Assembly (NCBI GenBank): GCA_002269645.1
Contig: NIVC01002072.1
Span: 1-64,000, forward strand
From: Macrostomum lignano
Lineage: Eukaryota
Length of the DNA: 64,000 bases
Reading direction: 5' to 3'
Each line of letters begins with the position of its first letter. The first letter of the stretch is position 1. Position numbers and translations under genes: made by a program. The notes beneath the pieces are model-generated. The model was not told where the DNA came from. It ran no database searches and saw nothing but the letters and a program-made list of their open reading frames with translations. Below are positions 1 through 26,047 of the stretch, piece by piece.

Positions 1-527
1 TCTTAAGGAAATGGGGCCCGGCGCGCACCCTAGGGGAGAATTTGTACAGGTGCCGTAAGTCCGTTTACGGTCGGCATTTGGGTTCCCTAGCATGGCCGCA
101 AAATGAAGGTCAAGTCTCTCTGAATAGCCAATTTTTCCCTGTCAGGATGTGCCATAGACAACTGGTAGTGGTAGCCGCAGTTTGAGTCAGTGTGCTTTGC
201 CGAGTGAAGCCGTTAGGACTGCCTAAATGGAATTATGTGGAGCCACCCGTTTTTCAATTTGTTTTCTTCGACGCCGCAAGTATGTGGGTTTTGTCTGTGT
301 TTGTGTGTGTGTGAGTGTGTTTGTGTGTTTCGGATCAACTTTTCGGTCTTTACCTGTAGTTGCCCCGGTTTTCTTTTCTTTTCCTTCCCGGTAGTGGGTA
401 CTCCCCAGCTATCCGGCATTCACATGTCACGGCGCGTGGAGATAGGGTCGTAGAAGCTGTGTGCGCAGACGCCCTGGTCAACCACCCTCGGCCGCTGACA
501 CCCAGCAGTTGCCGCCCCGCAGCCGCA

Positions 528-1863
528 ATGGCCGCAGCCGCTGGTAACCAGGTCCCTCAGCCTCCAGAAGCAGTAGTAGTTGAGGAACCAGATGAAGGAG
601 TAGCAGCTCCCGCTCCCAATCAGGGTGGCGCAGCAGCCGCCGCTGCTCCCCCGGACGCAGCCCAGAATCCTCCTCAGGCAGTCCCGCAGCTAGGAGACTT
701 AGTTGCCGCTATAGCCAATGCGTTTAACCAGCTAAACATGGGCCAAGACGCCCAGAGGCCGAAAATCTACGTAGAAAAGTTCTCTCCCGGCGAACACTGT
801 TTTGTGCAATGGGTAGAGAGAATGATCTACAAGCTGGACGCGGAGAGAACTGTAGGAGATCAGGCTAGGAAGCAGGTGCTCATCTCGCACCTCCCAGGTG
901 AATTTCAGAACTTAGCCTTAGGATTGGACGGGCAATTGCCCTTTGAGCAGTTCGTATCTAGATTAGGAGAGCAGTTGGGCGAGGCCAACACTGATCTGGC
1001 TAAGAGAAATAAGCTGAAGAATCTGAGCCAGAAACCCGGCCAATCACATAGTGCTTTTGCTGCTATGATAAGATCTCAGATAACGGCCATGTTTCCTCAG
1101 ATTCAGGGTGAGCAGAGAGAACAAGAAATCGTGTACACCTACTTGGAACACGCTAAGCTCCCCCGCCAGGTCAGACAAGATCTGTTGAGCCGTCGCTGGC
1201 AGACAATTGAGCAGGTGTTAGAACAGCAGCAAGCCCTGTTAGAAGCCGCAGACTTAGCCGGGAAATGGGACAGTAGTGGCCCGCCCAGGTCTGAGTCCCG
1301 CACCGAAGTCCGTCTGCAACCTCAGCAGCCACCCAGGCCCCCTCGCAAGTGGGTCAGGATGGTGAACCAGGAAGCTGACGAGACGGAGGAGGACGGTGAC
1401 GGCCTATCAGAGATGCAAGAGAGGTTGGGCGCGCTAGAGCAAACGCAAAAGGATCTGCGCAACCAGCTGGTGCAGCTCAATGAAACTATGAAGGCGACAG
1501 CAGAGTCTGTTGCCCAGCTGCCCCAGCAGATGAGGCCCCCTCGCCCCGCCACTCCCAACAGGAACTGGAGGCAGGGCAGGGCGGCTCTAATAGCAGTAGG
1601 AACTGGCGCCAACCCCAGCCCCCGCGCTTGCAATTCAGGAGGCGCCCACGCCGCCGGCGCCGGGTGTGCAGCAGCAGCAATTGCAGCTTCGTGCGCCACC
1701 TGATCGCCATAGGCAAGATTTAGAGGAGTGGGGCAGAGATATGTTAGACGAGGCTACCAGGGAGAGGCAGGAGAGGCTCGCCCAGCTGCGCGCGCAAGCT
1801 CTGATGCCTCCTCCTTCCACGCCTGAAGAGCCCCCGGGTTCGGGAAACCCGTGGGAGGGCTGA
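528..1863 (+). CDS. gag: Gag (retrotransposon capsid-like), with two apparent single-base frameshifts
   Basis: ATG at 528 (MAAAAGNQ...), helical capsid-like core (KFSPGEHCFVQWVERMIY...LKNLSQKPGQSHSAFAAMIRSQ) and a coiled-coil stretch. Adding one base in the G run 1574-1576 and one in the C run 1619-1623 joins it to ...QQLQLRAPP...PGSGNPWEG* (stop 1861-1863). No CCHC knuckle seen. Confidence 0.75.
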
Positions 1864-1904: not shown

Positions 1905-2365
1905 CAGCTTAACCTGCCACGTCCGCCCAGCAAGAAGTTTAGATTTGAGAAGGTACCCGATTTCTATCAGCCAAGACCAGCTGAGGACAACGCGGGAGAG
2001 ATATTGTTGTAGAGTTGCCAATTGAGAATGTTCCCACCCGCCTCCTGGTAGATGGGGGCAGTGCGCTGTCTTTGCTAACAGTCAAAGACTTTACTAAAAT
2101 TACCGGACAGAGTGTGGAGGCCCTGGAGCCCCCATGTGTGAAGGCCGTGTCCTACACGGGCAATGAATTAGAGATGCTAGGCCAGGCCACCCTCACAGCA
2201 GTTATTGGGCTAGAAGAGGTGAGAATCCTCTTTCTGGTCGTTGGCAATTCAGCAGCAGTTTCCCTCCTGGGTAGTGCTTTTCTAGCCAGTACGCATGCTA
2301 TCATAGACTATCGAACAGAAAAGGTTTACTTGCTAGGTGTGAGTCTCCCATTCGACCCCCGCTGA
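1842..2365 (+). CDS. Retropepsin-like aspartic protease (second ORF, reached by -1 frameshift)
   Basis: IVVELPIENVPTRLLVDGGSALSLL (active-site DGG) and LLGSAFL (cf. ILGxDFL). Needs one extra G in 1994-1996 to join the -1 frame. Stop TGA 2363-2365 with another in-frame stop 5 codons later. Confidence 0.8.
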
Positions 2366-2952: not shown

Positions 2953-3213
2953 TCAGCAGTTGGGAAGCCGCAGAAATAGCTCCAAGAGCAGTAGCCAGTG
3001 CATTGTGAGACCGGCTATTAGGGCCGTCGACAGCACGACCAAATGCCAGGAGCCGTCGGTCTCCACCACAGGGGTTGGCAAGGGCTGTGGAGCGGCAGCC
3101 ACGGGCGTCACCGCGGCGACCGGCGGCGGAGCGTGCGCTCGGGCTGACAACGGCGGTGGTACCGGATGCCAACCCGGCCGGACGCTGGTTCGCTGGCGGC
3201 CCGGCGGTCGCAT
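2953..3213 (-). CDS. Putative small Pro-rich single-pass membrane protein (86 aa), antisense within the LTR element
   Basis: ORF MRPPGRQ...SWHLVVLSTALIAGLTMHWLLLLELFLRLPNC. Its ATG (context gggccATG) is the first after a strong minus-strand acceptor (ttctcattttcAG, AG at 3360-3359). Confidence 0.35.
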   Translation of the reverse strand: MRPPGRQRTSVRPGWHPVPPPLSARAHAPPPVAAVTPVAAAPQPLPTPVVETDGSWHLVVLSTALIAGLTMHWLLLLELFLRLPNC

Positions 3214-3548
3214 GGCCCGGGAGCCGCGGCGCCTATGCCACCAGATGGCGCAGCCGGCCCAGAATCAGAGGGGGCGTCCGGCTCTGAATGGCTGTCTTCG
3301 GGCGCTTCGTAGTCGGACTCCTCTTCAAGGATGGGCTCGGCTACTAGCGGCCGGAATCCTGAAAATGAGAATTTAAGGGATGAAATAGAAGTAGGGAACT
3401 AGCCGGGTATTAGGATGTAGATAGATGGGGATTTTAACTTTATGGCGTGTGGTAGTGGCCTTCCTGGGGGTTTCTTCCTTTCTTCATTCCCTCTCCTTCC
3501 TTGAGCTCTAGGTGATCAAGTAGTGGTAGCCTTCTTCCCCGCCTTCTT

Positions 3549-3917
3549 TTAATGATACACCTCTAAGGATGGCAGTTTTTCGTCTTCCTCTCCTCTGGTA
3601 GAAGGGCAATTGTGGCAGTTTTCCCTAGCAACCTCTCTCAAAATTGTGGCTGATCCTCCTTTTCTTTTCTTTGGTAATGCGCCAAGATGGTGGTAGGTTC
3701 CCCTTTCTCTTTTATAATAGTACATCAAACTGGTGGCAGTCAAATTAATGATTAATTCCTCTTTCGAATTCTTTCGGCTGTTAAGTTTATGAGGGTCTCG
3801 GAGGCATGGATGAGAACTGCGTGCGCGCGTGGCGTTGAAGGAAGAAATCGAAGGGAGTTGGGCCGCATCATCATTTATCCTCCGGAGTCTAATCTCCCAA
3901 ATCCCTCTTCTATTCAT
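3549..3917 (-). CDS. Putative antisense basic ORF (122 aa from ATG 3917; open from ATG 3959) within the LTR element
   Basis: MNRRGIWEIRLRRINDD...; preceded by a possible acceptor cacacattcAG (3947-3946). No family recognised. Confidence 0.3.
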   Translation of the reverse strand: MNRRGIWEIRLRRINDDAAQLPSISSFNATRARSSHPCLRDPHKLNSRKNSKEELIINLTATSLMYYYKRERGTYHHLGALPKKRKGGSATILREVARENCHNCPSTRGEEDEKLPSLEVYH

Positions 3918-4074
3918 ATTAACCAAATTAATTTGTGTGCCTGATCTGAATGTGTGCATGTGAGGTGGGAGTGCGATCTCTGTCGGCTGGAGTACGGATC
4001 TGCCGCGGGCGCGACCGGAGGGTGGTCTCGGTCTGCCCCCTGCTCACAGGTGAGGAAACAGGAAGCGGCGGAAC

Positions 4075-4197
4075 CAGCCAATCAGAGCGCACGGAGACTA
4101 GAGCGAGCGGTCCCAAGCCAACGGCGACCCCGGCCGCAGCAGGTGTGCCTCCCAATGTGCTCAACCAATGGGAAGCCAGCCCCGGCACTATAAGAAG
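4075..4197 (+). promoter_or_regulatory. Putative internal Pol II promoter (CCAAT x3 plus TATA)
   Basis: CAGCCAATCAGAG 4075-4087, CCAAT at 4152 and 4165, TATAAGAAG 4189-4197, about 90 nt before ATG 4288. Confidence 0.45.
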
Positions 4198-4287
4198 ACC
4201 CACGCCTGCCAGAGCTGGAAATCATCAATCAGAGAAATCATTCTGTCCTTCAATCGCTGAAGCATTCTATGAACTATCCAGCTTGAC

Positions 4288-5635
4288 ATGGACACGAAGC
4301 CTACCATCAATCGAATTCAGCTATGCTCCAGCTTACCGTCTGAGCGTCCTGCCAGCCCAGTTAGCCGAAAGCGGCCCGTGACGCCATCCAAGAGGCGGAG
4401 GACGGCCCCGAGCCGCCAGCGGCGGCCTCCGCCAGGGTCGAAGAAGGTGACGAGACAATCGACCCGGCCAATGCTGGGGCGACACCGCGGACATTTCGGA
4501 CATGGCGGCCGAATTCGGCGAGGCGGCCCGCCGCCTGCGTGATGTTCTGCCCAACAGCCGCCGAAGTGTGGACATCGCCCTGCAAAGAGAAGAAGTCGAT
4601 TGGGGTCAGGTGGCTGGCGAACCTTCGGCGACAGCTATGGATCTGGTGCACTGGGTCGGGCCTGAGTCCTATCATGGCCCACTCCAGGCCGAGGACAGGC
4701 ATGCGACTCTAGAGCGCCAACTTCGCGACAACCTGGACCGGCCCTGTCTGCTCATCCTGTCAAAAGCGGCCCTGCTGGGATTGGTTGACAATACGCTGTT
4801 AATGTACATCGAGGCAGCGGCCCAGAGCGCCTACAAATACGCCCTCGGCGACCTAGTCCGGCAGGCCGCCAAGTTCCTCCGCAAGGTTGTGGATGAGGAA
4901 CCATCACACCTGACAGCCCGGCCGCCGTCCTGTGCCCCCATCACAGCAATCTTCAGCACCTGCGATCGGCCGGTCTACAAGAAGGTGATCATCAGCTGCG
5001 CAGCCTCCTCTCAGATGACTAGACAACTGACGCCAACCCAGAGAGCCCGGCTATTGATTGGCCTGGCCAGCTTGGCCAGCCGCTGGGGCATGCTTCCTGC
5101 GGACCTGCCAGGGCTGCTCTGGGGCTTCCTGAGCGAGGGCGCCGAATGGGAAGAGGCTCTCGTCATCCACGACGGCATTCTTGCGGCCTCCGCGCCGGCC
5201 TCTGCGCCCCTCCTCTATGCGCCGTTTGCCACAGTGGCCTGGGCCGCCACTCTCTCGCAACGGTTCAATCGCCGCTGTGGGTGGGTGTTGGCGGCCCTGG
5301 GCGACGTTGAGCCCGGCTACGCGGGCCTGGCCGAGGTGCCCCGTGGCACTTTGCAGCATTTTGCAATCGCGCAGCCGCCCCTGTCTGCACCAACTCTGAC
5401 ACGGCTGCAACAAGTACGGAATGCGGCCTTCGTCGTCCAATGCCAAGCCCTGGGCATCCCGACTCTGCCGCAGTTGAGGGGCGTGCTGCGCAACGACATC
5501 TTGCCTAGCCGATGGCACCGAGTGGTGCTCACGGCCGCGGCAGCCCAACGTTATGTGGAAGCATGGGCAAGTGCCATGGCTCAGGTGGCGGCATATGGCC
5601 CGTACCAGCTAAATCAAGAGGCCCATTTCGAGTAA
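4288..5635 (+). CDS. Unknown accessory protein ORF-X (377 aa uninterrupted from 4502; ~449 aa if two single-base gaps are repaired)
   Basis: Long GC-rich ORF 4502-5635. Adding one C in 4406-4409 and one G in 4476-4479 links it to ATG 4288 with a basic NLS-like motif (RKRPVTPSKRRRT). No domain recognised. Confidence 0.6.
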
Positions 5636-5977
5636 GGATGCTGACTGCCTGCTGAGCGACGTCCGCCGGCCGGTCCGACCCGCCTTTCCGCCCCCTTGCG
5701 TTGTGTGTTTGTCGTGTGTGTGTGTGTGAAATTATCCTATTAATATTCGGTTCTTCCATAATATTCATTTTTAAACTTTAATAACCAATATACGAGTCAT
5801 TGTTGTGTCATTATTCTAAAAATTCCTAAAAATGGCTCTGTGTTGGCTGCTCACTACTTTTACCGTAAGAAAGGCCATATATTATTACTGCAATTGGCTC
5901 AGTTTAAAACGAAAGGCATGGCGAGTGGGTAGATTTCGTTTAACGTATAGGCGAAAGGAAATCAGGTTGGTGATGGG

Positions 5978-6159
5978 ACTTACCGAGTAGTTGTATAGTT
6001 TGGAAAATCGCGCTGAGTGCCTTGGTTGGAAACTGCGACTCCGTGTAGGTTGCAGGCAGCCGGCTCCCGTTATCAGTGGCGCCTTTTATACAGTGGCCAG
6101 CGCACGGCGCGGCGCCTCCCAGCCTACAACCGATCGCCCCGAAGCCCTCTGACTGGCTG
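5978..6159 (-). promoter_or_regulatory. Putative antisense promoter, short leader exon and splice donor
   Basis: Minus strand: CAGCCAGTCAGAG (6159-6147), TATAAAAGG (6090-6082), then an ATG-free leader ending ctcg|GTAAGT (donor 5983-5978). Confidence 0.45.
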
Positions 6160-6678
6160 AAGCGGGGTCCGAGCCTTCAAGGACGCTAGGCCTCCGTGCG
6201 GTTGAACTCCCGGCGAAATTAGCTTATTAATTTACTGCGCTGCATTAGTATTTTTCCCCTGTGTAATCGTCATTCTCCCCGAGGCTCTGCCCTTGGCTGT
6301 GTGCTAGCAACCCTTCCCCCCTTCTTTTTCCCCACTTCCCTCACCCTTCCCCGTTTCCTCTCTTTCCCAGCTGCGCTTCTATCCAATTATGATAATTTAT
6401 TGTTGACAATTCGCTATTTTTCTCCCTACTATTGCGCTGTCTGTGTTTCCCCCCTCCCACTTTAGCCACAGCAACAGTTGAAATTTTTGAAATTCTGTAT
6501 TGCACTCCAACCTATGTATCTCGTGTTGTGAATTTATTGCTATCCCCTCTATTTTATCGCCTTTTTCCATTCCCGCTCGCGGTTTGTTAATTCTGTGATT
6601 TCACGTTCGGTTGAGATCCCGCTCCCGTCTGTGTGGTTCCATGTTGGGCAGTGATGATGACGGAACCAGTTCCGTCAC

Positions 6679-6695
6679 AAAAGGCAGTGGGGGTG
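6679..6695 (+). other. Polypurine tract
   Basis: AAAAGGCAGTGGGGGTG immediately 5' of the LTR start TGATG. Confidence 0.7.
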
Positions 6696-8913
6696 TGATG
6701 TAACCACGCTCTGGTCGCGGGATAGGGCATGGGAACTTTTTCGAAAGTGCCTCCTATCCCGTGCACCCTCTGCACAGAGCTGTCGAGACTCGGCCAGGTC
6801 TCCGACCGGGCCTGGAGACTCCCGCTCTGCTGCACCTCTCCTGCTGCCTTGGTCCCGTCTCTTCTGCCGCCACACCTGCCTTTCCGGAGCCCCTACCCCT
6901 TTCTGTACCTCCCCCTCTACCCTATCTCTTCTGTTCCCGCCCTATTCTTCCTGTACTTTCTCTACCTCCTCCTTTTTTTTGTCTCCCTCTGCACTCTTTT
7001 CCTGCGCTGTCCCCTCTTTCCCTGTGTCTACTTACAGTACTTTGTGTGCTCACCGTCTCCCCATCCCCTCTCAAACTCCCAAACGGTGACGCAAGTCGTG
7101 TGACCCCTTCTCCCCTCGGTGACTCATCGATGACTCATCCCCCTCTCTTGCGCAACCTTTTCTCACGCTATTGTTCTCCTTCCCAAATTTCTCATGTGAC
7201 ACCCACCCCACCTCCGCTTCTATTGTTCTCGTTTTTGCTTCTTTTGTTCTCTCGACCCCCACCAATTATCACATTTTCTCCGATTTTCTCTTTCTTTTGT
7301 TCTCGTTTTCGCACCTAATTATCACCTTTTCTCCAATGTTTACTTTTCCATTGTTCTCAGTTTTCCCCAATTATCCCCGATTTCCAATTCCTTTGTTCTC
7401 GACCCCAGCCCTATTGTTCTCAATGTTTGCTTGCGCAACACTTTCGCGACCACCCGCTGCGCCAATTATCCCCCACCCCACCTCCGGATTGCGCAATTTC
7501 CCGATTTCTCATGTTGCTATGCCGGTCTCATGCTTCTCATCATGACTCATTCTGACGTCATTCTGCCGGCAGCCAATCAGAGAGAGGGAGCCATGGTAAC
7601 GACCTTGAGGAGGCGGCTGTGAGGTCTATAAAAGGAAGCGATTTCGGCATGAGAATACTCAACTGAGTTTATCTCTGTTCCTCTCCTCGTCCTTCTTTGG
7701 ACTTGCTGTCAGATTGAGTTCTGACCCATTCGTCTATAAGACGAATCCCTGCCGGTCCGCGGTCTGTTACCGCCAAGTTATCCTTAGCTCCCCAAGTGAG
7801 CTCGCCTATCGGCCAGCGGTCTGATACCGCCCAGCATCATCAGCATCGCCTGATCTACATCAGCGCCTCGTCGCTCCAGCGCATCGCCGCTTCACCGTCT
7901 GCCTGACTGCAGCCTACAGCCGCCCTCGGTCACTCCGTCTCTCTCTCTCTCTCTGTGCAGCTGCCGGTAAGTTCCTGCTACTAATTTGTGCTCTAATTGC
8001 CTTTGCTTATCCGGGGTTTGCCTATTTTCCATTGTCTGATTAGAGAGCTGAGCCAATTGTGATACCGTATCTTTTGCTGTATTTTACTCAATAGTGAAGC
8101 TGCCTAATTGCCTGCTTATTTGCCTAAGGGCCTAATTATTAACTATTAACTAACTTCATCATTATTCAATCTTTCACCATCATTTCACTCATGGCTTGCT
8201 AAGCCTTTCTCCCGGGGTGGCAAAGCATAAGGAAGTTTGGGTAAGCTAATGGCCTCTCCCCGTGCAAAGCCCGCCTGTGAGTGCGTGATGCGGGGCCGCG
8301 TGTGCGTGCAGTAGAGGGATTAGCGAGTCTTGGCACAGAATGGCAGTAGGAAGGTTGCAACCCCATGCTAACGCGTCCCTTCGCCCTGAGCAATCTAAAC
8401 TGTAGACAGTACATGTTCGCCTCATACTACTCTTAGTAATCAAAGTCGCAAGTCAGCCTCGCTCACAGCCACAAAGGATCCCCTGCTGAGAAATCCTCCA
8501 GGATTGAGCCCAGAGTTCCCGATCATGCCCCAAGCAGAGTCCCTGTACTCGGCTGCATGCGTCTCCCCTGTTAGCCTAAATCCCCTGGTAACCAATCCAG
8601 GCGGGGCTCTAGCCTCGAGAGGTCTGGTAGAAAGATCCAGGTGCGCCAGGTCACATAGAGTGGTGGCAGCCACTCGGTCATACCATGACCGAGTGACCAA
8701 CTATTGCACCTTGGCTACAGGTGGGGTCCATGTGGGTCCTTGGCCCTCTGGTCACGAAGCGCTACCAAAGCTACTAATCATGTGGGCGGGACAGTCTGGT
8801 GCTGGAGGTCCGTCAGGTCATTGCCCGGTCATAGGCAGCCTACGGTCATTGCCCCCTCTAGCCATGCGTTCGTCTCTCTACGGAGCGGACAGGCGACAAG
8901 GGCGGTTACATCA
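6696..8913 (+). repeat. 3' LTR (~2.2 kb)
   Basis: TG...CA ends with a 10-bp terminal inverted repeat TGATGTAACC/GGTTACATCA. Contains AP-1-like TGACTCA sites, CRE TGACGTCA, CAGCCAATCAGAG 7570-7582 and TATAAAAGG 7627-7635. The second LTR is not in the window, so it cannot be confirmed by pairing. Confidence 0.7.
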
Positions 8914-9302
8914 CTTTTATAAATAGTGCTCCCCCGGATAAATTTGACCCGGACATATTGGGTACAGTTTTTTTTCATTTAAAACCATGCCGCAGAGGAT
9001 AACGGTATCGTACCAAATGACTCAGGACATGACACAAGCTGGAATGCAACCTGGAATGCAACTGGCCTGAGGCTTCGGACATGTATATACTGCTCATAGC
9101 AACTTTCTATCACCGGAGTATCTATACGAGTATAGTAACTTTTCAAACTGACATTGCGCAGCACTAACGAGAGGCTAGTGTACATTGCCGACTAATGATA
9201 GTGACCTGAGGACAGCACCCCCTGAACACAGTGCTGATGACAGAGTGCACCCTGAGGACATTCAAACAGGAACTGCAGTTCACAAAAAGCACAACACCCT
9301 CA

Positions 9303-9653
<351 letters not shown>

Positions 9654-9775: not shown

Positions 9776-9865
9776 CCGGTGATAGCTCAGTTGGTAAAGC
9801 GGAGGACTGTAGAGTGCAAATGTGCAGTGATCCTTAGGTCGGTGGTTCAAATCCGCCTCACCGGA
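9776..9865 (+). tRNA. tRNA-Tyr(GTA) with 17-nt intron (9813-9829)
   Basis: Acceptor stem CCGGTGA/TCACCGG, A73, D arm TAGCTCAGTTGGTAAAGC, anticodon GTA 9809-9811, T arm GGTGG-TTCAAAT-CCGCC, TTTT terminator 9871-9874. Confidence 0.92.
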
Positions 9866-9941: not shown

Positions 9942-10836
9942 ATATGAAATATTGTACCTTGTTTAAATATCTGCTCTTTTAGTTTTAAAAATATGCTACT
10001 TTTTACTTGGAATGGAGAGTACCGTAAGCCGGAATTTTCTCAGTGTTATATTTTTTCGATACATATCGGTTAAAATATTTTTTTCGAATTCTGATAACTT
10101 GCCAATAGTTCGATGAAACGATCTATAAATTTGAACAATTTTTAAAGTCAAACTTTGATAAATCAAATTCTGCGTCAGGAGGAACTGACCGGATTACTGA
10201 CCAGATAATTACTGACCAGAAAACCCTATCAGCCAATAAATATTTAGCAGTAGTATCAGAGAACATTTGCTGTATTTTTAAAAACTTCTTTGAAAAAAAT
10301 TATCCGACTTCGTTTTTCACTACTCAGAACAGAACTGATGCTCAAGCGAAGCGAGAGTCCACCGTCACTCGTCAACCTTAACGAAATATAATTATCTGAA
10401 TGCGGGACGAATATGAATAAATCAATTCCAACAGTAAAGTTAATAATGTACCAATTTTTATAAACGCAATGCAAGCAAAGTGACATCGCGCTCTCACATC
10501 GAGTTTAGTGCAGCAGCGTTATTATGGAGTCGTGGGATTTTGACAACGGGATTAGCGAGTAAGCCCGGGATATGCTATGCTAAATTTATATATAAAAATA
10601 CATTTTTGCTTAGAAGTTGGAAGAAATGACCCCATGCATAAATGAGTTCAGACATTCTGATTCGCATCCAGCGCAAATCGAGTGTTCTGCGTTCGGCCAA
10701 ATTATATTGCAACTGCTAGAATTGGCGGCTTGAGTAGGGCAACGGTCTTAACTGCCTCGTTCGCTTGTTCGTCTGTGTATTAGTGTCTTGCTGTTTTGGT
10801 GTCTCGGTGTCTTCATATCTTGGTGTATTAGTGTCT
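9942..10836 (+). repeat. 895-bp direct repeat, copy 1
   Basis: Matches 17064-17958; only a 2-nt difference noticed by eye. Confidence 0.9.
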
Positions 10837-10992
10837 GTCTGTTTTGGTGTCTCGGTGTCTTCATATCTTGGTGTATTAGTGTCTTGCTCTTTTGGTGTCT
10901 CGGTGTCTTCATATCTTGGTGTATTAGTGTCTTGCTGTTTTGGTGTCTCGGTGTCTTCATATCTTGGTGTATTAGTGTCTGTCTGTCCGTCA

Positions 10993-11048
<56 letters not shown>

Positions 11049-11068
11049 TAGTGTCTGTCTGTCCGTCA

Positions 11069-11114
<46 letters not shown>

Positions 11115-11125
11115 GTCTGTCTTAG

Positions 11126-11158
<33 letters not shown>

Positions 11159-11243
11159 CTGTCTGTCTGTCTCTGTCTGTATGTCTGTCTGTCTTCGTGT
11201 CTGTCTGTCTGTCTGTCTGCCTGTCTGTCAGCCTGTCTGTCTG
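10775..11243. repeat. 48-bp tandem repeat (~4 copies) grading into (CTGT)n microsatellite
   Basis: Unit gtgtattagtgtcttgctgttttggtgtctcggtgtcttcatatcttg, then GTCT repeats. Confidence 0.9.
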
Positions 11244-11753
11244 AGCCTGACTATACTACTGGTTCGATACTACTGCACATACTTAGAGAAGCCAGCCGAA
11301 GTAGCCATGCATGCAGAATATTTGACGAGCGGCAATTTCGTGCTAAGAAAAGTTAAACGTGCAGGGGATGCCGAGTTTCGGGGGTTGCCACGCAACGCGT
11401 TTCTCTTGCGAGCAGCATGCAGTTTTCTATCCCAGGATCTGCATCTTTCTTTCAAGAGGAATTCAGGAAACGGGCGTGAATTGGATTAGGAATTCAGGCT
11501 CTGGTATGTGGAAAGTGGCTGAAGGGGAGCCGATGGGGACAGCTGCAGTCTGGCTATTCCCTCCTTCCCATCGTGGGAGGAGCTGAAAGGTGGGAAATCG
11601 CCAACAATTAATGATGATGACTGACAGACAGGTGACGGCAGAACCGCTGCCTTATTCTATACCCATTTATAGCACACTTAACAACTTCTATCAGCCCCAT
11701 TATCAGGCCCAAGCTGACTATGCATGTGTGCCCGTTAAAGCAGTCAGTGCAGC

Positions 11754-14458
<2,705 letters not shown>

Positions 14459-14910
14459 GATCAAACAAGGACACAGCCCTGCGGCAGAATTTCAATGTAA
14501 AGGTTGGGTCCTATTAGAAAATCGTGCAGTTAGCCCTGGCCGGAACAAATGGCGGCGGTGTTTACGCAAAGCAGATAAACAAAGTCAATATTGGCCTGCT
14601 TGCTGCTCCCACGGTTCAACTTGTTTGTCGCGCAGCGAGGGACACACGGGCTGAGGCGGCAGCTTTGCCCGGCCTTTCCGCCGCTTTTTTGGCTGCCAGA
14701 TCGAGAGTTGAAATCCAGAGTTTTCGTTGGAATAAATACACTGGGTGCCCTCCCGCACCCGGCTGAACTGCACCGGGACCGGCACAAATCCCGGCTGAGC
14801 CGCATGGGAAAATGAAATTCGACACTGGGGGTTTCATGGGAGCAAGTGGTGGGCTCGGCGCTTTGGTGTCTGCTGTGTGTGGCTTTGAATGTGAAATTTG
14901 TAGCCTTATT

Positions 14911-15497
<587 letters not shown>

Positions 15498-15996
15498 TAT
15501 CTGACAAACTAAGAATTGGTCATTGAACTTGAGGCATCGCCCTTTATCGATCCAGCAAAAGAGCTCAGCTTTATTGGAAGTTTTTAGGAATTCGGACCCC
15601 GGACCCCGTATCTTTTCAGAAGAAGTCTTTAATACTTAATTAGCCCCTCCTTCACTCCTTCAGTATTCAGCCAACACGCGAAGACTTGAAGAGGAGTGGC
15701 TGGCAGGTGCAAGAGAATGTTAGAAATTCAGGGCAAGTGAGACGCTTGCACGCCACAGACGGCGCAGGTCCTAATTAAGCCAGTTCTAACCTATTGAGCG
15801 TTCGGTGGCGCGCGGGCTCCAGCTGCAAGGAGGCCTCCCGTGCGCAAACTGCGTGTCTGGCTAAAGCTGAAGTACCTGCTTAGCCATGCCACCTGTGCAT
15901 GGTGTAACTAACCAGTCTACCTGCATGGGCATCATCATCTAAGCGGAACTAGGTAGGGCGCCTGCCTGCCAAGACCAACTTTACTCAGATTAATGT

Positions 15997-16442
15997 GATT
16001 TCTGCTGTGTGTTGCAGGATTTCTGCTGCGAGTTGCAGGAGTTCTGCTGTGTGTTGCAGGATTTCTGCTGTGTGTTGCAGGATTTTTGCTGTGTGTTGCA
16101 GGAATTCTGCTATGAGTTGCAGGATTTCTGCTGTGTGTTGCAGGATTTCTGCTGTGTGTTGCAGGATTTCTGCTGTGTATTGCAGGATTTCTGCTGTGTG
16201 TTGCAGGAATTCTGCTATGAGTTGCAGGATTTCTGCTGTGTGTTGCAGGATTTCTGCTGTGTGTTGCAGGATTTCTGCTGTGTATTGCAGGATTTCTGCT
16301 GTGTGTTGCAGGATTTCTGCTGTGTGTTGCAGGATTTCTGCTGTGTATTGCAGGATTTCTGCTGTGTGTTGCAGGATTTCTGCTGTGTGTTGCAGGAATT
16401 CTGCTATGAGTTGCAGGATTTCTGCTGTGTGTTGCAGGATTT
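15997..16442. repeat. 21-bp minisatellite (tctgctgtgtgttgcaggatt)
   Basis: About 21 copies; 7-aa periodicity in the ORF track. Confidence 0.95.
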
Positions 16443-17063
16443 CCGGTGTTTTTCAGGAACTCTGCATCTCGCTAACTAAACCAAGACACGTATTGCATAT
16501 GCTTCATTGCATGAAGCAAATTAGGAAATACCAGAAAAGAGATTCAATCGTTCCTTACCTTGCGATTTCTCTATTTGCAACAAAACTATTCAGAGCAGTT
16601 GTAGTCCTGCAAGGTTGTATAGCGCTTCTTGTGTAGGTTAATATGCGAAGTTATGAGGCTGCGTGGCCCCCTCTCATGCTGTTCTGCTTTTTTAGCTATA
16701 TCGGTCAACACCCCACCTCTCCCTCCCTCCCTCCCACTCTCTCCCTCTCTCTCCCCTCTGTCCTGTTCTCTCCCAGCGGTTTCCAGTGCACAGTGACTAA
16801 ACCCGCCTCCGGGCCAATGGCGAAGCTGCGGCCTCCCCCGGTGCGTACGGGCATGGCAACCCCTCCCCCCCCCGATGCGAAACCAAGGCAGGAGAGTGTT
16901 GTATAGTCTTTACAGGCACAGGCCTATACCCTCGTGGATATAATGTGTTTGGGTCAGGCTGTACACTGAGCGAAGGGGGGGGGGGTCGCGGGAGCTCACT
17001 GTTCTATAAGAAAATTCGAGGTGTGTGTGAGAGTGCAAATGGAGGTGCTGCAATAAATACTTC

Positions 17064-17958
17064 ATATGAAATATTGTACCTTGTTTAAATATCTGCTCTT
17101 TTAGTTTTAAAAATATGCTACTTTTTACTTGGAATGGAGAGTACCGTAAGCCGGAATTTTCTCAGTGTTATATTTTTTCGATACATATCGGTTAAAATAT
17201 TTTTTTCGAATTCTGATAACTTGCCAATAGTTCGATGAAACGATCTATAAATTTGAACAATTTTTAAAGTCAAACTTTGATAAATCAAATTCTGCGTCAG
17301 GAGGAACTGACCGGATTACTGACCAGATAATTACTGACCAGAAAACCCTATCAGCCAATAAATATTTAGCAGTAGTATCAGAGAACATTTGCTGTATTTT
17401 TAAAAACTTCTTTGAAAAAAATTATCCGACTTTTTTTTTCACTACTCAGAACAGAACTGATGCTCAAGCGAAGCGAGAGTCCACCGTCACTCGTCAACCT
17501 TAACGAAATATAATTATCTGAATGCGGGACGAATATGAATAAATCAATTCCAACAGTAAAGTTAATAATGTACCAATTTTTATAAACGCAATGCAAGCAA
17601 AGTGACATCGCGCTCTCACATCGAGTTTAGTGCAGCAGCGTTATTATGGAGTCGTGGGATTTTGACAACGGGATTAGCGAGTAAGCCCGGGATATGCTAT
17701 GCTAAATTTATATATAAAAATACATTTTTGCTTAGAAGTTGGAAGAAATGACCCCATGCATAAATGAGTTCAGACATTCTGATTCGCATCCAGCGCAAAT
17801 CGAGTGTTCTGCGTTCGGCCAAATTATATTGCAACTGCTAGAATTGGCGGCTTGAGTAGGGCAACGGTCTTAACTGCCTCGTTCGCTTGTTCGTCTGTGT
17901 ATTAGTGTCTTGCTGTTTTGGTGTCTCGGTGTCTTCATATCTTGGTGTATTAGTGTCT
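17064..17958 (+). repeat. 895-bp direct repeat, copy 2
   Basis: Matches 9942-10836. Confidence 0.9.
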
Positions 17959-18120
17959 AAAGGCCAACGCGAGATAATTTGCCAAAGTAAGAGCACCCCT
18001 GACTCATGCTCAAGAGTCGCCTCCACAGAAATTGCGCCCCATAAGTATAGTGCTCCAATAAAAATGAATGACAGAAGCTCAACTTCTGTCACCTCTTGGA
18101 CGTGACATCCACCAGCCTAG

Positions 18121-21100
18121 GAGACAGGGGTGGGCGCCCACCAAGAGACAGGTGTGATCACCAAGAGACAGGTGTGATCACCAAGAGACAGGGGCGCCCA
18201 CCAAGAGACAGGTGTGATCACCAAGAGACAGATGTGATCACCAAGAGACAGGTGTGCTCACCAAGAGACAGGTGTGATCACCAAGAGACAGGTGTGATCA
18301 CCAAGAGACAGGGGCGCCCACCAAGAGACAGATGTGATCACAAAGAGACAGTTGTGATCACCAAGAGACAGGGGCGCCCACCAAGAGACAGGTGTGATCA
18401 CCAAGAGACAGGTGTGATCACCAAGAGACAGGGGCGCCCACCAAGAGACAGGTGTGATCACCAAGAGACAGATGTGATCACCAAGAGACAGGGGCGCCCA
18501 CCAAGAGACAGGTGTGATCACCAAGAGACAGATGTGATCACCAAGAGACAGATGTGATCACCAAGAGACAGGTGTGATCACCAAGAGACAGATGTGATCA
18601 CCAAGAGACAGATGTGATCACCAAGAGACAGGTGTGATCACCAAGAGACAGATGTGATCACCAAGAGACAGGTGTGATCACCAAGAGACAGATGTGATCA
18701 CCAAGAGACAGGTGTGATCACCAAGAGACAGATGTGATCACCAAGAGACAGATGTGATCACCAAGAGACAGGTGTGATCACCAAGAGACAGATGTGATCA
18801 CCAAGAGACAGATGTGATCACCAAGAGACAGGTGTGATCACCAAGAGACAGGGGGCGCCCACCAAGAGACAGATGTGATCACCAAGAGACAGATGTGATC
18901 ATTACCAAGAGACAGATGTGATCACCAAGAGACAGGGGGCGCCCACCAAGAGACAGATGTGATCACCAAGAGACAGATGTGATCACCAAGAGACAGGTGT
19001 GATCACCAAGAGACAGGGGGCGCCCACCAAGAGACAGATGTGATCACCAAGAGACAGATGTGATCACCAAGAGACAGATGTGATCACCAAGAGACAGATG
19101 TGATCACCAAGAGACAGGTGTGATCACCAAGAGACAGGGGGCGACCACAAAGAGACAGGGGGCGCCCACCAAGAGACAGATGTGATCACCAAGAGACAGA
19201 TGTGATCACCAAGAGACAGGTGTGATCACCAAGAGACAGGGGGCGCCCACCAAGAGACAGATGTGATCACCAAGAGACAGATGTGATCACCAAGAGACAG
19301 ATGTGATCACCAAGAGACAGGTGTGATCACCAAGAGACAGGGGGCGACCACAAAGAGACAGGGGGCCACCACCAAGAGACAGGGGGCGACCACCAAGAGA
19401 CAGGGGCGCCCACCAAGAGACATATGAGATCACCAAGAGACAGGGGGCGATCACCAAGAGACAGGTGTGATCACCAAGAGACAGGGGGCGACCACCAAGA
19501 GACAGGGGGCGACCACAAAGAGACAGGGGGCCACCAAGAGACAGGGGCGCCCACCAAGAGACAGGTGTGATCACCAAGAGACAGATGTGATCACCAAGAG
19601 ACAGGTGTGATCACCAAGAGACAGGTGTGATCACCAAGAGACAGATGTGATCACCAAGAGACAGGTGTGATCACCAAGAGACAGATGTGATCACCAAGAG
19701 ACAGGTGTGATCACCAAGAGACAGATGTGATCACCAAGAGACAGGTGTGATCACCAAGAGACAGGTGTGATCACCAAGAGACAGATGTGATCACCAAGAG
19801 ACAGGGGCGCCCACCAAGAGACAGATGTGATCCCCAAGAGACAGGGGGCGCCCACCAAGAGACAGATGTGATCACCAAGAGACAGATGTGATCACCAAGA
19901 GACAGGTGTGATCACCAAGAGACAGGGGGCGCCCACCAAGAGACAGATGTGATCACCAAGAGACAGATGTGATCACCAAGAGACAGATGTGATCACCAAG
20001 AGACAGATGTGATCACCAAGAGACAGGTGTGATCACCAAGAGACAGGGGGCGACCACAAAGAGACAGGGGGCGCCCACCAAGAGACAGATGTGATCACCA
20101 AGAGACAGATGTGATCACCAAGAGACAGGTGTGATCACCAAGAGACAGGGGGCGCCCACCAAGAGACAGATGTGATCACCAAGAGACAGATGTGATCACC
20201 AAGAGACAGATGTGATCACCAAGAGACAGGTGTGATCACCAAGAGACAGGGGGCGACCACAAAGAGACAGGGGGCCACCACCAAGAGACAGGGGGCGACC
20301 ACCAAGAGACAGGGGCGCCCACCAAGAGACATATGAGATCACCAAGAGACAGGGGGCGATCACCAAGAGACAGGTGTGATCACCAAGAGACAGGGGGCGA
20401 CCACCAAGAGACAGGGGGCGACCACAAAGAGACAGGGGCCACCAAGAGACAGGGGCGCCCACCAAGAGACAGGTGTGATCACCAAGAGACAGATGTGATC
20501 ACCAAGAGACAGGTGTGATCACCAAGAGACAGGTGTGATCACCAAGAGACAGATGTGATCACCAAGAGACAGGTGTGATCACCAAGAGACAGGTGTGATC
20601 ACCAAGAGACAGATGTGATCACCAAGAGACAGGGGCGCCCACCAAGAGACAGATGTGATCCCCAAGAGACAGGGGGCGCCCACCAAGAGACAGATGTGAT
20701 CACCAAGAGACAGATGTGATCACCAAGAGACAGGTGTGATCACCAAGAGACAGGGGGCGCCCACCAAGAGACAGATGTGATCACCAAGAGACAGATGTGA
20801 TCACCAAGAGACAGATGTGATCACCAAGAGACAGATGTGATCACCAAGAGACAGGTGTGATCACCAAGAGACAGGGGGCGACCACAAAGAGACAGGGGCG
20901 CCCACCAAGAGACAGATGTGATCAACAAGAGACAGATGTGATCACCAAGAGACAGGTGTGATCACCAAGAGACAGGGGGCGCCCACCAAGAGACAGATGT
21001 GATCACCAAGAGACAGATGTGATCACCAAGAGACAGATGTGATCACCAAGAGACAGGTGTGATCACCAAGAGACAGGGGGCGACCACAAAGAGACAGGGG

Positions 21101-24100
21101 GCCACCACCAAGAGACAGGGGGCGACCACCAAGAGACAGGGGCGCCCACCAAGAGACATATGAGATCACCAAGAGACAGGGGGCGATCACCAAGAGACAG
21201 GTGTGATCACCAAGAGACAGGGGGCGACCACCAAGAGACAGGGGGCGACCACAAAGAGACAGGGGGCCACCAAGAGACAGGGGCGCCCACCAAGAGACAG
21301 GTGTGATCACCAAGAGACAGATGTGATCACCAAGAGACAGGTGTGATCACCAAGAGACAGGTGTGATCACCAAGAGACAGATGTGATCACCAAGAGACAG
21401 GTGTGATCACCAAGAGACAGATGTGATCACCAAGAGACAGGTGTGATCACCAAGAGACAGATGTGATCACCAAGAGACAGGTGTGATCACCAAGAGACAG
21501 GTGTGATCACCAAGAGACAGATGTGATCACCAAGAGACAGGGGCGCCCACCAAGAGACAGATGTGATCCCCAAGAGACAGGTGTGATCACCAAGAGACAG
21601 GGGCGCCCACCAAGAGACAGGTGTGATCACCAAGAGACAGATGTGATCACCAAGAGACAGGTGTGCTCACCAAGAGACAGGTGTGATCACCAAGAGACAG
21701 GTGTGATCACCAAGAGACAGGGGCGCCCACCAAGAGACAGATGTGATCACAAAGAGACAGTTGTGATCACCAAGAGACAGGGGCGCCCACCAAGAGACAG
21801 GTGTGATCACCAAGAGACAGGTGTGATCACCAAGAGACAGGGGCGCCCACCAAGAGACAGGTGTGATCACCAAGAGACAGATGTGATCACCAAGAGACAG
21901 ATGTGATCACCAAGAGACAGGTGTGATCACCAAGAGACAGATGTGATCACCAAGAGACAGATGTGATCACCAAGAGACAGGTGTGATCACCAAGAGACAG
22001 ATGTGATCACCAAGAGACAGGTGTGATCACCAAGAGACAGATGTGATCACCAAGAGACAGGTGTGATCACCAAGAGACAGATGTGATCACCAAGAGACAG
22101 ATGTGATCACCAAGAGACAGGTGTGATCACCAAGAGGCAGATGTGATCACCAAGAGACAGATGTGATCACCAAGAGACAGGTGTGATCACCAAGAGACAG
22201 GGGCGCCCACCAAGAGACAGATGTGATCACCAAGAGACAGATGTGATCACCAAGAGACAGATGTGATCACCAAGAGACAGATGTGATCACCAAGAGACAG
22301 GTGTGATCACCAAGAGACAGGGGGCGCCCACCAAGAGACAGATGTGATCACCAAGAGACAGATGTGATCACCAAGAGACAGATGTGATCACCAAGAGACA
22401 GATGTGATCACCAAGAGACAGGTGTGATCACCAAGAGACAGGGGGCGACCACAAAGAGACAGGGGGCGCCCACCAAGAGACAGATGTGATCACCAAGAGA
22501 CAGATGTGATCACCAAGAGACAGGTGTGATCATCAAGAGACAGGGGGCGCCCACCAAGAGACAGATGTGATCACCAAGAGACAGATGTGATCACCAAGAG
22601 ACAGATGTGATCACCAAGAGACAGGTGTGATCACCAAGAGACAGGGGGCGACCACAAAGAGACAGGGGGCCACCACCAAGAGACAGGGGGCGACCACCAA
22701 GAGACAGGGGCGCCCACCAAGAGACAGATGTGATCACCAAGAGACAGGGGGCGATCACCAAGAGACAGGTGTGATCACCAAGAGACAGGGGGCGACCACC
22801 AAGAGACAGGGGCGACCACAAAGAGACAGGGGCCACCAAGAGACAGGGGCGCCCACCAAGAGACAGGTGTGATCACCAAGAGACAGATGTGATCACCAAG
22901 AGACAGGTGTGATCACCAAGAGACAGGTGTGATCACCAAGAGACAGATGTGATCACCAAGAGACAGGGGCGCCCACCAAGAGACAGATGTGATCACCAAG
23001 AGACAGGTGTGATCACCAAGAGACAGGGGCGCCCACCAAGAGACAGGTGTGATCACCAAGAGACAGGTGTGATCACCAAGAGACAGGGGCGCCCACCAAG
23101 AGACAGGTGTGATCACCAAGAGACAGATGTGATCACCAAGAGACAGGTGTGATCACCAAGAGACAGGTGTGATCACCAAGAGACAGATGTGATCACCAAG
23201 AGACAGGGGCGCCCACCAAGAGACAGATGTGATCACCAAGAGACAGGTGTGATCACCAAGAGACAGGGGCGCCCACCAAGAGACAGGTGTGATCACCAAG
23301 AGACAGATGTGATCACCAAGAGACAGGTGTGATCACCAAGAGACAGATGTGATCACCAAGAGACAGGTGTGATCACCAAGAGACAGATGTGATCACCAAG
23401 AGACAGGTGTGATCACCAAGAGACAGATGTGATCACCAAGAGACAGATGTGATCACCAAGAGACAGGTGTGATCACCAAGAGACAGATGTGATCACCAAG
23501 AGACAGATGTGATCACCAAGAGACAGGTGTGATCACCAAGAGACAGGGGCGCCCACCAAGAGACAGATGTGATCACCAAGAGACAGATGTGATCACCAAG
23601 AGACAGATGTGATCACCAAGAGACAGATGTGATCACCAAGAGACAGGTGTGATCACCAAGAGACAGGGGCGCCCACCAAGAGACAGATGTGATCACCAAG
23701 AGACAGATGTGATCACCAAGAGACAGATGTGATCACCAAGAGACAGATGTGATCACCAAGAGACAGGTGTGATCACCAAGAGACAGGGGGCGACCACAAA
23801 GAGACAGGGGGCGCCCACCAAGAGACAGATGTGATCACCAAGAGACAGATGTGATCACCAAGAGACAGGTGTGATCACCAAGAGACAGGGGGCGCCCACC
23901 AAGAGACAGATGTGATCACCAAGAGACAGATGTGATCACCAAGAGACAGATGTGATCACCAAGAGACAGGTGTGATCACCAAGAGACAGGGGGCGACCAC
24001 AAAGAGACAGGGGGCCACCACCAAAAGACAGGGGGCGACCACCAAGAGACAGGGGCGCCCACCAAGAGACAGATGTGATCACCAAGAGACAGGGGGCGAT

Positions 24101-25970
24101 CACCAAGAGACAGGTGTGATCACCAAGAGACAGGGGGCGACCACCAAGAGACAGGGGGCGACCACAAAGAGACAGGGGGCCACCAAGAGACAGGGGCGCC
24201 CACCAAGAGACAGGTGTGATCACCAAGAGACAGATGTGATCACCAAGAGACAGGTGTGATCACCAAGAGACAGGTGTGATCACCAAGAGACAGATGTGAT
24301 CACCAAGAGACAGGGGCGCCCACCAAGAGACATATGTGATCACCAAGAGACAGGTGTGATCACCAAGAGACAGGGGCGCCCACCAAGAGACAGGTGTGAT
24401 CACCAAGAGACAGATGTGATCACCAAGAGACAGGTGTGATCACCAAGAGACAGGTGTGATCACCAAGAGACAGATGTGATCACCAAGAGACAGGGGCGCC
24501 CACCAAGAGACAGATGTGATCACCAAGAGACAGGTGTGATCACCAAGAGACAGGGGCGCCCACCAAGAGACAGGTGTGATCACCAAGAGACAGGTGTGAT
24601 CACCAAGAGACAGGGGCGCCCACCAAGAGACAGGTGTGATCACCAAGAGACAGGTGTGATCACCAAGAGACAGGGGCGCCCACCAAGAGACAGGTGTGAT
24701 CACCAAGAGACAGGGGCGCCCACCAAGAGACAGGGGCGCCCACCAAGAGACAGGTGTGATCACCAAGAGACAGATGTGATCACCAAGAGACAGATGTGAT
24801 CACCAAGAGACAGGTGTGATCACCAAGAGACAGATGTGATCACCAAGAGACAGGTGTGATCACCAAGAGACAGATGTGATCACCAAGAGACAGGTGTGAT
24901 CACCAAGAGACAGATGTGATCACCAAGAGACAGATGTGATCACCAAGAGACAGGTGTGATCACCAAGAGACAGGGGGCGCCCACCAAGAGACAGATGTGA
25001 TCACCAAGAGACAGATGTGATCACCAAGAGACAGATGTGATCACCAAGAGACAGATGTGATCACCAAGAGACAGGTGTGATCACCAAGAGACAGGGGGCG
25101 CCCACCAAGAGACAGATGTGATCACCAAGAGACAGATGTGATCACCAAGAGACAGATGTGATCACCAAGAGACAGATGTGATCACCAAGAGACAGATGTG
25201 ATCACCAAGAGACAGATGTGATCACCAAGAGACAGGGGGCGCCCACCAAGAGACAGATGTGATCACCAAGAGACAGATGTGATCACCAAGAGACAGGTGT
25301 GATCACCAAGAGACAGATGTGATCACCAAGAGACAGGTGTGATCACCAAGAGACAGATGTGATCACCAAGAGACAGATGTGATCACCAAGAGACAGGTGT
25401 GATCACCAAGAGACAGGGGGCGACCACAAAGAGACAGGGGGCCACCACCAAGAGACAGGGGCGATCACCAAGAGACAGGGGCGATCACCAAGAGACAGGG
25501 GCGATCACCAAGAGACATGGGCGACCACCAAGAGACAGGGGCGACCACCTAGAGACATGGGCGATCACCAAGAGACAGGGGCGATCACCAAGAGACAGGG
25601 GCACTCACCAAGAGACAGGGGGCGACCACCAAGAGACAGGGGCGATCACCAAGAGACAGGGGCGATCACCAAGAGACAGGGGGCGACCACCAAGAGACAG
25701 GGGCGACCACCAAGAGACAGGGGGCGACCACCAAGAGACAGATGTGATCACCAAGAGACGGACGATCACCAAGAGACAGGGGCGATTACCAAGAGACAGG
25801 GGCGATCACCAAGAGACATGGGCGACCACCAAGAGACAGGGGCGATCACCAAGAGACAGGGGCGATCACCAAGAGACAGGGGCGATCACCAAGAGACATG
25901 GGCGACCACCAAGAGACAGGGGCGACCACCTAGAGACAGGGGCGATCACCAAGAGACAGGGGCGCCCAAC
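18121..25970. repeat. 7.9-kb 20-bp minisatellite (CACCAAGAGACAG plus 7-nt variable segment) with higher-order blocks
   Basis: Variants GTGTGAT / ATGTGAT / GGGCGCC / GGGCGAC / GGGCGAT; repeated multi-unit cassettes. Confidence 0.97.
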
Positions 25971-26047
25971 AAGAGATCGGGGCGCCCGCCCCCCACCCAG
26001 ACACCAAGTATTGGCGCCCCTTAGCGTTGCGGCCCTCTTCGAATTAG

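Follow-up and report, generated by a model that had tools for sequence, protein, structure and literature searches.

A constrained third gene in a gag-protease gypsy-type retrotransposon of Macrostomum lignano, and a protease-less partner family with which it may form a two-part element

LTR retrotransposons that lack part of the coding set and rely on a partner are known from several systems, which are compared here as far as the available parts of the sources describe them. In wheat, the Sabrina_SA and WHAM elements encode Gag and protease without reverse transcriptase (RT) and integrase (IN) and co-evolve with their partner Wilma (PMC9744471). RLG_Quinta, which is paired with RLG_Cereba (PMC11302176), is a non-autonomous element encoding Gag and an unknown domain, and the partnership is described as partly mutualistic, with coding cassettes swapped between lineages by recombination, while TR-GAG and BARE-2, the latter alongside BARE-1, are LTR elements that lack pol or gag and depend on complementation in trans (PMC4350172). 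In all of these published partnerships, as there described, the partner is fully autonomous. Additional genes have also been reported. CERV, encoded by the C. elegans element Cer1 (PMC10309623), is a non-env protein in the env position with a candidate basic nuclear localization signal (NLS) and folded domains that have no sequence relatives; rotifer elements (PMC5408684) carry extra ORFs in both orientations, which the majority of the copies in a family conserve; for plants, additional ORFs in sense and antisense have been reviewed (PMC7264820); and env-less gypsy elements of the MDG1 group encode sORF2, a small FAST-like fusogen with a single membrane helix (bioRxiv 10.1101/2025.03.14.642691).

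The stretch of DNA analysed here (the window, 64,000 nt of Macrostomum lignano, positions 1 to 64,000 of contig NIVC01002072.1, assembly GCA_002269645.1) begins within a copy of an element family that we call A, whose features are collected in Table 1. Intact family A copies are 13.0-13.2 kb long, and their LTR pairs are 99.0-99.9% alike. A 4-bp target duplication was found in three of the five copies with usable flanks (C254 has a tandem junction and C650 shows no duplication), the primer-binding site (PBS) matches tRNA-Leu and a polypurine tract (PPT) is present. The gag product matches the Pfam family PNMA weakly (E 0.024) and its CA region aligns with the gags of complete elements. The protease stop is followed by the decayed start of a protease-RT linker, and no ORF for RT, RNase H (RH) or IN was found in family A copies. 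Since paired LTRs, target duplication, PBS, PPT, gag and retropepsin are all present and RT-RH-IN is missing, family A is a non-autonomous Ty3/gypsy LTR retrotransposon. It differs from TR-GAG, which is described as shorter than 4 kb, with gag as its single ORF and without a protease, in its size, its protease and two extra genes, one in each orientation, of which the sense gene is termed ORF-X. The LTR of the window copy also contains CCAAT/TATA at about 7573 and 7626 and a GTAAGT donor (window 7955-7972), and an acceptor-like site lies before gag near 395.

Table 1. Features of the family A copy at the start of the window (positions are those of the window)
Feature	Position	Strand	Remarks
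Leader, 3' part, and first gag codons	1..634	+	Common with partner family A' (97.8% over 2.2 kb, reaching upstream of the window)
gag, CA-like, without CCHC knuckle	424..1863	+	491-codon frame in intact copies; broken near 1600 here
GGGAAAC, predicted -1 frameshift site between gag and protease	1842..1848	+	Function suggested by the slippery-site pattern
Retropepsin protease (LVDGGS)	1985..2365	+	PF13975, E 0.008; ends in a stop
Antisense exon 2	2953..3358	-	134 codons long in 14 of 23 loci; an acidic part is followed by a Pro/Ala-rich one and a C-terminal hydrophobic helix; frame-broken here
Antisense intron, 978 nt, GT..AG	3359..4336	-	Joint 3357-4336, CT..AC ends
Predicted internal promoter of ORF-X	4078..4194	+	CCAAT 4078-4082, CCAAT 4165-4169, TATAAG 4189-4194
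ORF-X	4288..5635	+	Intact copies encode 449 aa; frame broken here near 4375 and near 4476
Antisense coding exon 1	4337..4575	-	About 80 codons from ATG 4575, MSTLRRLLGRTSRRR; overlaps ORF-X codons ~17-96
3' untranslated region with polypurine tract	5868..6695	+	Common with A' (97-99%)
3' LTR, 2218 bp, TG..CA	6696..8913	+	Common with A' (99.3-99.8%); 4-bp target duplication

A genome search with the 3' region of the element gave at least seven loci that match from position 62 on, among the best 40 of 66 candidates, which were those scored, and most of the seven coincide with long ORFs weakly matched by the family A gag. Three copies of this second family, A', were examined (C936, C2925 and C2803). 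A' and A have in common the LTR, a leader of 2.2-2.3 kb together with the first gag codons (identities in Table 1), the 3' region, PBS and PPT; C936 has an LTR pair of its own, 99.5% alike, and a 4-bp target duplication. With LTR pairs 99.0-99.9% alike and target duplications, A and A' are both young. A' contains a single ORF (1553 aa in C936) that comprises a diverged CA-like region, a linker, RT, RH and IN. Pfam finds no protease in this ORF, and a protease profile search matched none of six partner loci, compared with seven of eight control gypsy loci, two of the matched controls being close to a profile member.

The arrangement is repeated in a second pair. Family B, whose protease and gag are 42% and 37% identical to those of A, pairs with B' (two copies, C3095 and C1757), which has a protease-less ORF of 1432 aa. 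A D[TSG]G motif before RT is absent in any frame of C936 and C3095, and the CA-like domain and the linker are separated by only 20-35 residues in A' and B'. The two partner ORFs are 71-76% identical in RT, RH and IN and 30% identical in the CA-like part, and their RT-RH regions cluster together with 99/98 support in a five-sequence tree, whereas the LTRs of A and B have no alignable stretch. As A' and B' group together and the LTRs of A and B do not align, the split probably predates both pairs, each of which would have kept common LTRs. No CCHC knuckle is present in the Gag regions of A, B, A' or B'.

Measured against the Sabrina- and Quinta-type partnerships, family A presents a gag-protease set without RT and IN, PBS and LTR termini common with its partner and contemporaneous activity, but not a fully autonomous partner. 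Like RLG_Sabrina_SA and RLG_WHAM, it encodes gag and protease only, and those elements too have variants with extra ORFs of unknown function; Wilma, however, is described as encoding the complete canonical set with little sequence in common, whereas here no protease is encoded by the partner, and the LTRs are 99.6% alike over their full length. Cereba likewise is reported to have GAG, protease, RT, RH and INT, while Quinta has no protease, and both belong to a plant centromeric clade; BARE-1 is described as autonomous, unlike A'. We consider mutual complementation of A and A' probable. Complete gag-pro-pol gypsy families are also found in the same genome and could supply protease or Pol instead, and a complete member with A or B LTRs could lie beyond the best candidates scored in the genome searches. 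A more far-reaching reading, to which we give a probability of roughly 0.55, is an obligately bipartite ('segmented') animal LTR retrotransposon. Segment 1 would provide Gag, protease and an overlapping sense/antisense cassette encoding a nuclear protein of new fold and a tail-anchored membrane protein, and segment 2 the CA-like-RT-RH-IN protein; the split would be old, with at least two pairs, and the LTRs kept by recombination. As the best explanation overall, ORF-X would be a conserved accessory gene of a gypsy-type element that lacks RT, RH and IN and likely replicates along with its protease-less partner family, the protein being predicted to act in trans as a nuclear helper. The stronger result, which outweighs the identity of ORF-X, is an element that appears to be in two parts and carries overlapping sense and antisense genes. 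In each of two independent pairs, both halves look incomplete; such elements would be to retroelements what multipartite viruses are to viruses, and would offer a natural setting in which to study what holds a divided genome together. An annotation that starts from RT, as the mining of flatworm elements in PMC12801592 does in the part available, would presumably miss the gag-protease half and count the other half as an ordinary family. In the literature searched, with subscription papers and bioRxiv supplements outside its scope and some sources available in part, no publication was found on a mutual protease-less/pol-less pair or on ORF-X, and the available part of PMC13524379 contained nothing relevant.

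One locus, C100:602-612k, has a complete gag-pro-pol with a B-type ORF-X behind it; it was considered as an undivided ancestor and rejected as a single recombinant. At L145:6330-8000 (C100:608-612k) the gag-pro-pol of another family, C, is joined to a B-type ORF-X and a B-type LTR. Nine family C relatives stop matching just before this ORF-X, and the eight that were fetched are without any ORF-X. Family C (L163:2382-3824; C299, C833, C867, C1382, C3152, C3711, C764 and C1849) is a complete gypsy family with 776-bp LTRs and a Q/P-rich third ORF of ~480 aa, which ends in a helical-looking domain of ~150 aa with no confident Pfam match; homology of this ORF to ORF-X is not demonstrable (probability 3%).

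ORF-X had been singled out in a sequence-only reading of the window as an uninterrupted frame of 377 codons, and this stands, positions 4451-5635 being open for 394 codons from stop to stop and for 377 from the first Met. The start at ATG 4288, proposed there after two single-base repairs, is the natural one, from which an intact ORF-X of 449 aa is read in 15 of the 30 copies fetched. A DNA search of the same genome gave 38 matches, 32 of which span most of the query at 97-100%, the remainder being two 76% variants (C100 and C201) and four partial matches. The locus C5217 is the same as that of the window contig (99.8% alike, into the flank) and has ORF-X intact; contigs from sequencing runs read through the break at 4375 in all four runs and through that at 4476 in three of the four; and indels lie beside homopolymer runs in 43 of 68 cases over the 30 copies (two poor copies account for 42 of the 68) against a background of 29%. 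The two frame breaks, although real in this contig, are therefore most likely long-read assembly errors.

The protein consists of a low-complexity N-terminus with RKRP and an acidic linker, as the sequence-only reading had described, a predicted helical domain (residues 153-288) and a constrained C-terminal domain (290-449). The longer NLS-like motif proposed earlier, RKRPVTPSKRRRT, is out of frame after RKRP, and only RKRP itself is in frame: natural copies read SRKRPRDAIQEAEDG, with SRKRPWDGSQEAEDD as the other natural reading, and RKRP is followed by RDAIQE. RKRP is present in the three A variants of ORF-X (window, C100 and C201), whereas the family B homologue has no such motif. An internal promoter had also been proposed; both CCAAT boxes and TATAAG are present and invariant in the three variants, which are ~72-79% alike in this region, while the 5' UTR down to the ATG diverges, and promoter activity is predicted from this pattern. 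Upstream of the family B homologue, an acceptor-like site is found instead of CCAAT/TATA. The third variant, C201 (L032:4090-5850), is decayed and retains the promoter, with no gag, pol or LTR match in the 26 kb fetched.

ORF-X is almost certainly a real, selected gene. The C100 variant encodes an intact protein of 450 aa with 77% identity, and the comparison of C254 with C100 gives a dN/dS of 0.106 (bootstrap CI 0.074-0.143), falling from 0.34 in residues 1-75, the highest regional value, to 0.036 in residues 291-449. No region shows a sign of positive selection, and the neutral decay across copies that had been named beforehand as evidence against a gene did not occur. From LTR and leader through gag and protease, C100 is 94-99% identical to the main family, but in ORF-X only 73-75%, with a dS of 1.34 for ORF-X versus 0.16 for gag. 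The ORF-X cassette was thus exchanged between elements that are young in their other parts. A search of 1.84 billion protein representatives gave three matches, two of them true homologues from two Logan assemblies (E 2.8e-21 and 6e-05); a full-length cluster member of 437 aa is ~30% identical to ORF-X along its whole length. The third match, P0004, is a TPR-like repeat protein whose similarity was put down to its repeats, and it was left aside. In family B of the same genome, a 385-aa ORF in the ORF-X position is related to ORF-X with an hhalign probability of 95.9 and 22-26% identity; it has 22 matches in the search and a dN/dS of 0.11. Over the homologues, which have 22-31% identity in the sense protein, the columns HDG, YAP, W/WA and G[DE] are conserved. 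ORF-X is an old, strongly constrained protein family. The description of it as an orphan thus applies to curated libraries but not to sequence space, where family B and the two Logan assemblies supply homologues, and the suggestion of a captured gene has lost ground: no donor was found, and the old family has so far been seen only in one element lineage and two context-less contigs.

No family match for ORF-X was obtained in Pfam, PHROGs or NCBIfam, no convincing one among PDB sequences (best E 0.13), and nothing was found in a word-indexed protein database, viral contigs or metagenome contigs. AlphaFold2 gave a pLDDT of 37 with two sequences; with eight, only residues 153-288 were confident (helical), the C-terminal domain having a pLDDT under 50. 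Foldseek, one of the checks that had been proposed, returned no match with E under 0.001 for the model against PDB and BFVD, and the best VIA-align hits (Z 6.2) were generic helical bundles, these fold searches covering mainly residues 152-321. The confident part of the model matches no assigned fold, which does not in itself make the fold new. The earlier statement that ORF-X resembles no known retroelement domain agrees with the lack of any host, pol or env match in the library and structure searches. As expected from the same reading, there is no env-like signal peptide, the N-terminal hydropathy being below 0. There is no clear membrane helix either (four homologues compared; best 19-residue window 1.7 here, 1.3-1.6 in homologues), so that, judged by its sequence, ORF-X is not an env protein; an env family match was also not found. 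A likeness to negative-strand virus nucleoproteins found no support in the family or Foldseek searches.

The second extra gene lies on the opposite strand and overlaps ORF-X; like the pairing of A with A', it had escaped the sequence-only reading. The joint 3357-4336 was found in contigs of three of the four runs, from three studies, the RNA status of the runs being a guess and the contigs showing neither start sites nor strand; it is the sole splice seen over ORF-X. Among the joints listed, none led from the LTR donor into ORF-X, which does not speak against such a splice. The antisense joint is in frame, and C100 keeps both its donor and its acceptor; all three variants retain the reading frame of exon 1 together with its start. 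For exon 2, dN/dS is 0.20 (CI 0.09-0.40), with 24 of 41 differences at third positions. The predicted product is a membrane protein of ~215 aa, anchored by a C-terminal helix of hydropathy 2.0-2.2 that ends ~9 residues from the C-terminus; it has no Pfam match. It resembles sORF2 as a small protein with a single membrane helix in an env-less gypsy element. In the available description, however, sORF2 has 63-107 aa, is often MG-myristoylated and has a central helix with a basic patch behind it, whereas the antisense protein starts with MS, has an N-terminal basic patch and a C-terminal helix and lacks a basic patch behind the helix. A FAST-like fusogen, which would be marked by an MG motif, a short ectodomain and a basic patch after the helix, was rejected on these grounds. 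Family B has an RG-rich antisense ORF between protease and ORF-X (L092:8495-8968, L104:3139-3750) that shows no similarity to the family A antisense gene. Whereas the rotifer ORF3s are described as recognizable enzymes or fusogens, here sense and spliced antisense genes overlap in a pol-less element. If the flatworm host is tractable, both could be studied by RNAi, by tagging and by stranded sequencing.

The bipartite reading suggests the following cycle. Family A would supply Gag and, via a -1 frameshift, Gag-protease; the A' RT-RH-IN, fused to its diverged CA-like domain, would co-assemble into A particles, where the A protease would cut the A' fusion in trans; tRNA-Leu would prime both RNAs, and the A' integrase could insert either. 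With a CCAAT/TATA promoter of its own driving its synthesis, ORF-X would use RKRP to reach the nucleus and there favour the expression or export of element RNA that is unspliced, the part that CERV plays for Cer1. Among the family A loci without ORF-X, 10 of the 11 examined carry a deletion of it, nine of them rejoined at 5777; this deleted form has been amplified, so ORF-X is dispensable in cis, perhaps altogether, and its absence from A' is likewise as expected of a factor acting in trans. A nuclear protein that assists element RNA would agree with the promoter motifs, with RKRP and with a soluble protein of two domains. CERV and ORF-X are alike by description only: CERV is reported to be spliced to gag exons and to have a G-protein-like domain, whereas ORF-X has promoter motifs of its own. 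We hold the role of nuclear promoter of RNA expression or export tentatively, ahead of an enzyme, a particle component or an anti-silencing factor; it is drawn from a four-residue motif and an analogy, and family B has neither the motif nor the promoter pattern.

Somewhat more doubtful is that ORF-X is an enzyme or pseudo-enzyme whose C-terminal domain would have diverged from an alpha/beta fold of the class I methyltransferase, TOPRIM or NYN type, with element nucleic acid or host defence factors as its targets. The constraint is strongest in exactly this domain, and the HDG, YAP, W and G[DE] columns are conserved; enzymatic ORF3s are described in the rotifer elements, and a third ORF with J-domain/TatD likeness occurs in the same genome. 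The likeness, noted by eye from motifs, is nevertheless at background level: against six tool-built, shallow profile alignments (RsmC, PrmC-like, N6-MTase, RecR TOPRIM, DnaG TOPRIM and NYN), hhalign probabilities were at most 0.4%, and 11 of 12 comparisons were equalled by at least one block-shuffled control, the twelfth lying above its best control by 0.3 score units. The acidic residues of the motifs also vary (HHG, NDG, GE).

It is unlikely that ORF-X belongs to the particle or the packaging machinery, either in place of the missing zinc-knuckle nucleocapsid or as an aid in co-packaging the products of the partners. That ORF-X stays with the gag-protease half in both pairs, none of whose members has a CCHC knuckle, would agree with such a role, but many gypsy Gags lack this knuckle, and promoter motifs of its own together with RKRP suggest that ORF-X is expressed separately and is nuclear. 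Unlikely to a similar degree is a transactivator or a factor against silencing, roles that the sequence-only reading had raised; family A would then be no more than a parasite, repaying its helper through ORF-X. The cassette exchange in C100 looks as if alternative alleles were kept, yet there is no positive selection, the low dN/dS of the C-terminal domain fits an arms-race suppressor less well, and a partner that itself lacks a protease makes the dependence look mutual. That the antisense membrane-protein gene is the active unit, with the ORF-X frame open as its by-product, would agree with the minus-strand origin of the only spliced RNA there, but in the sense frame the differences within residues 76-449 fall on 190 third, 58 first and 23 second positions of codons, each antisense frame over ORF-X has 9-15 stops and homologues keep the sense protein, and this very improbable reading is largely refuted by the codon pattern.

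Other elements and features were noted in the same genome and window. C1936 (L139:7495-9207) is a complete gypsy family whose third ORF of 571 aa has weak DnaJ and TatD matches, and in the family B copy at C1545 (L092:722-3897) the 3' LTR is interrupted by a LINE-like RT element. Just past the 3' LTR, the minus strand of window 9300-9653 holds a fragment similar to an exon of a heparan sulfate sulfotransferase (weak PF00685, E 0.018), and window 9776-9865 is tRNA-like with an apparent intron by eye, where ARAGORN without intron search called nothing. From 10700 to 26000 the window contains long microsatellite and minisatellite arrays (TCTG, TCTA, 20- and 21-nt units), which give rise to spurious long ORFs.
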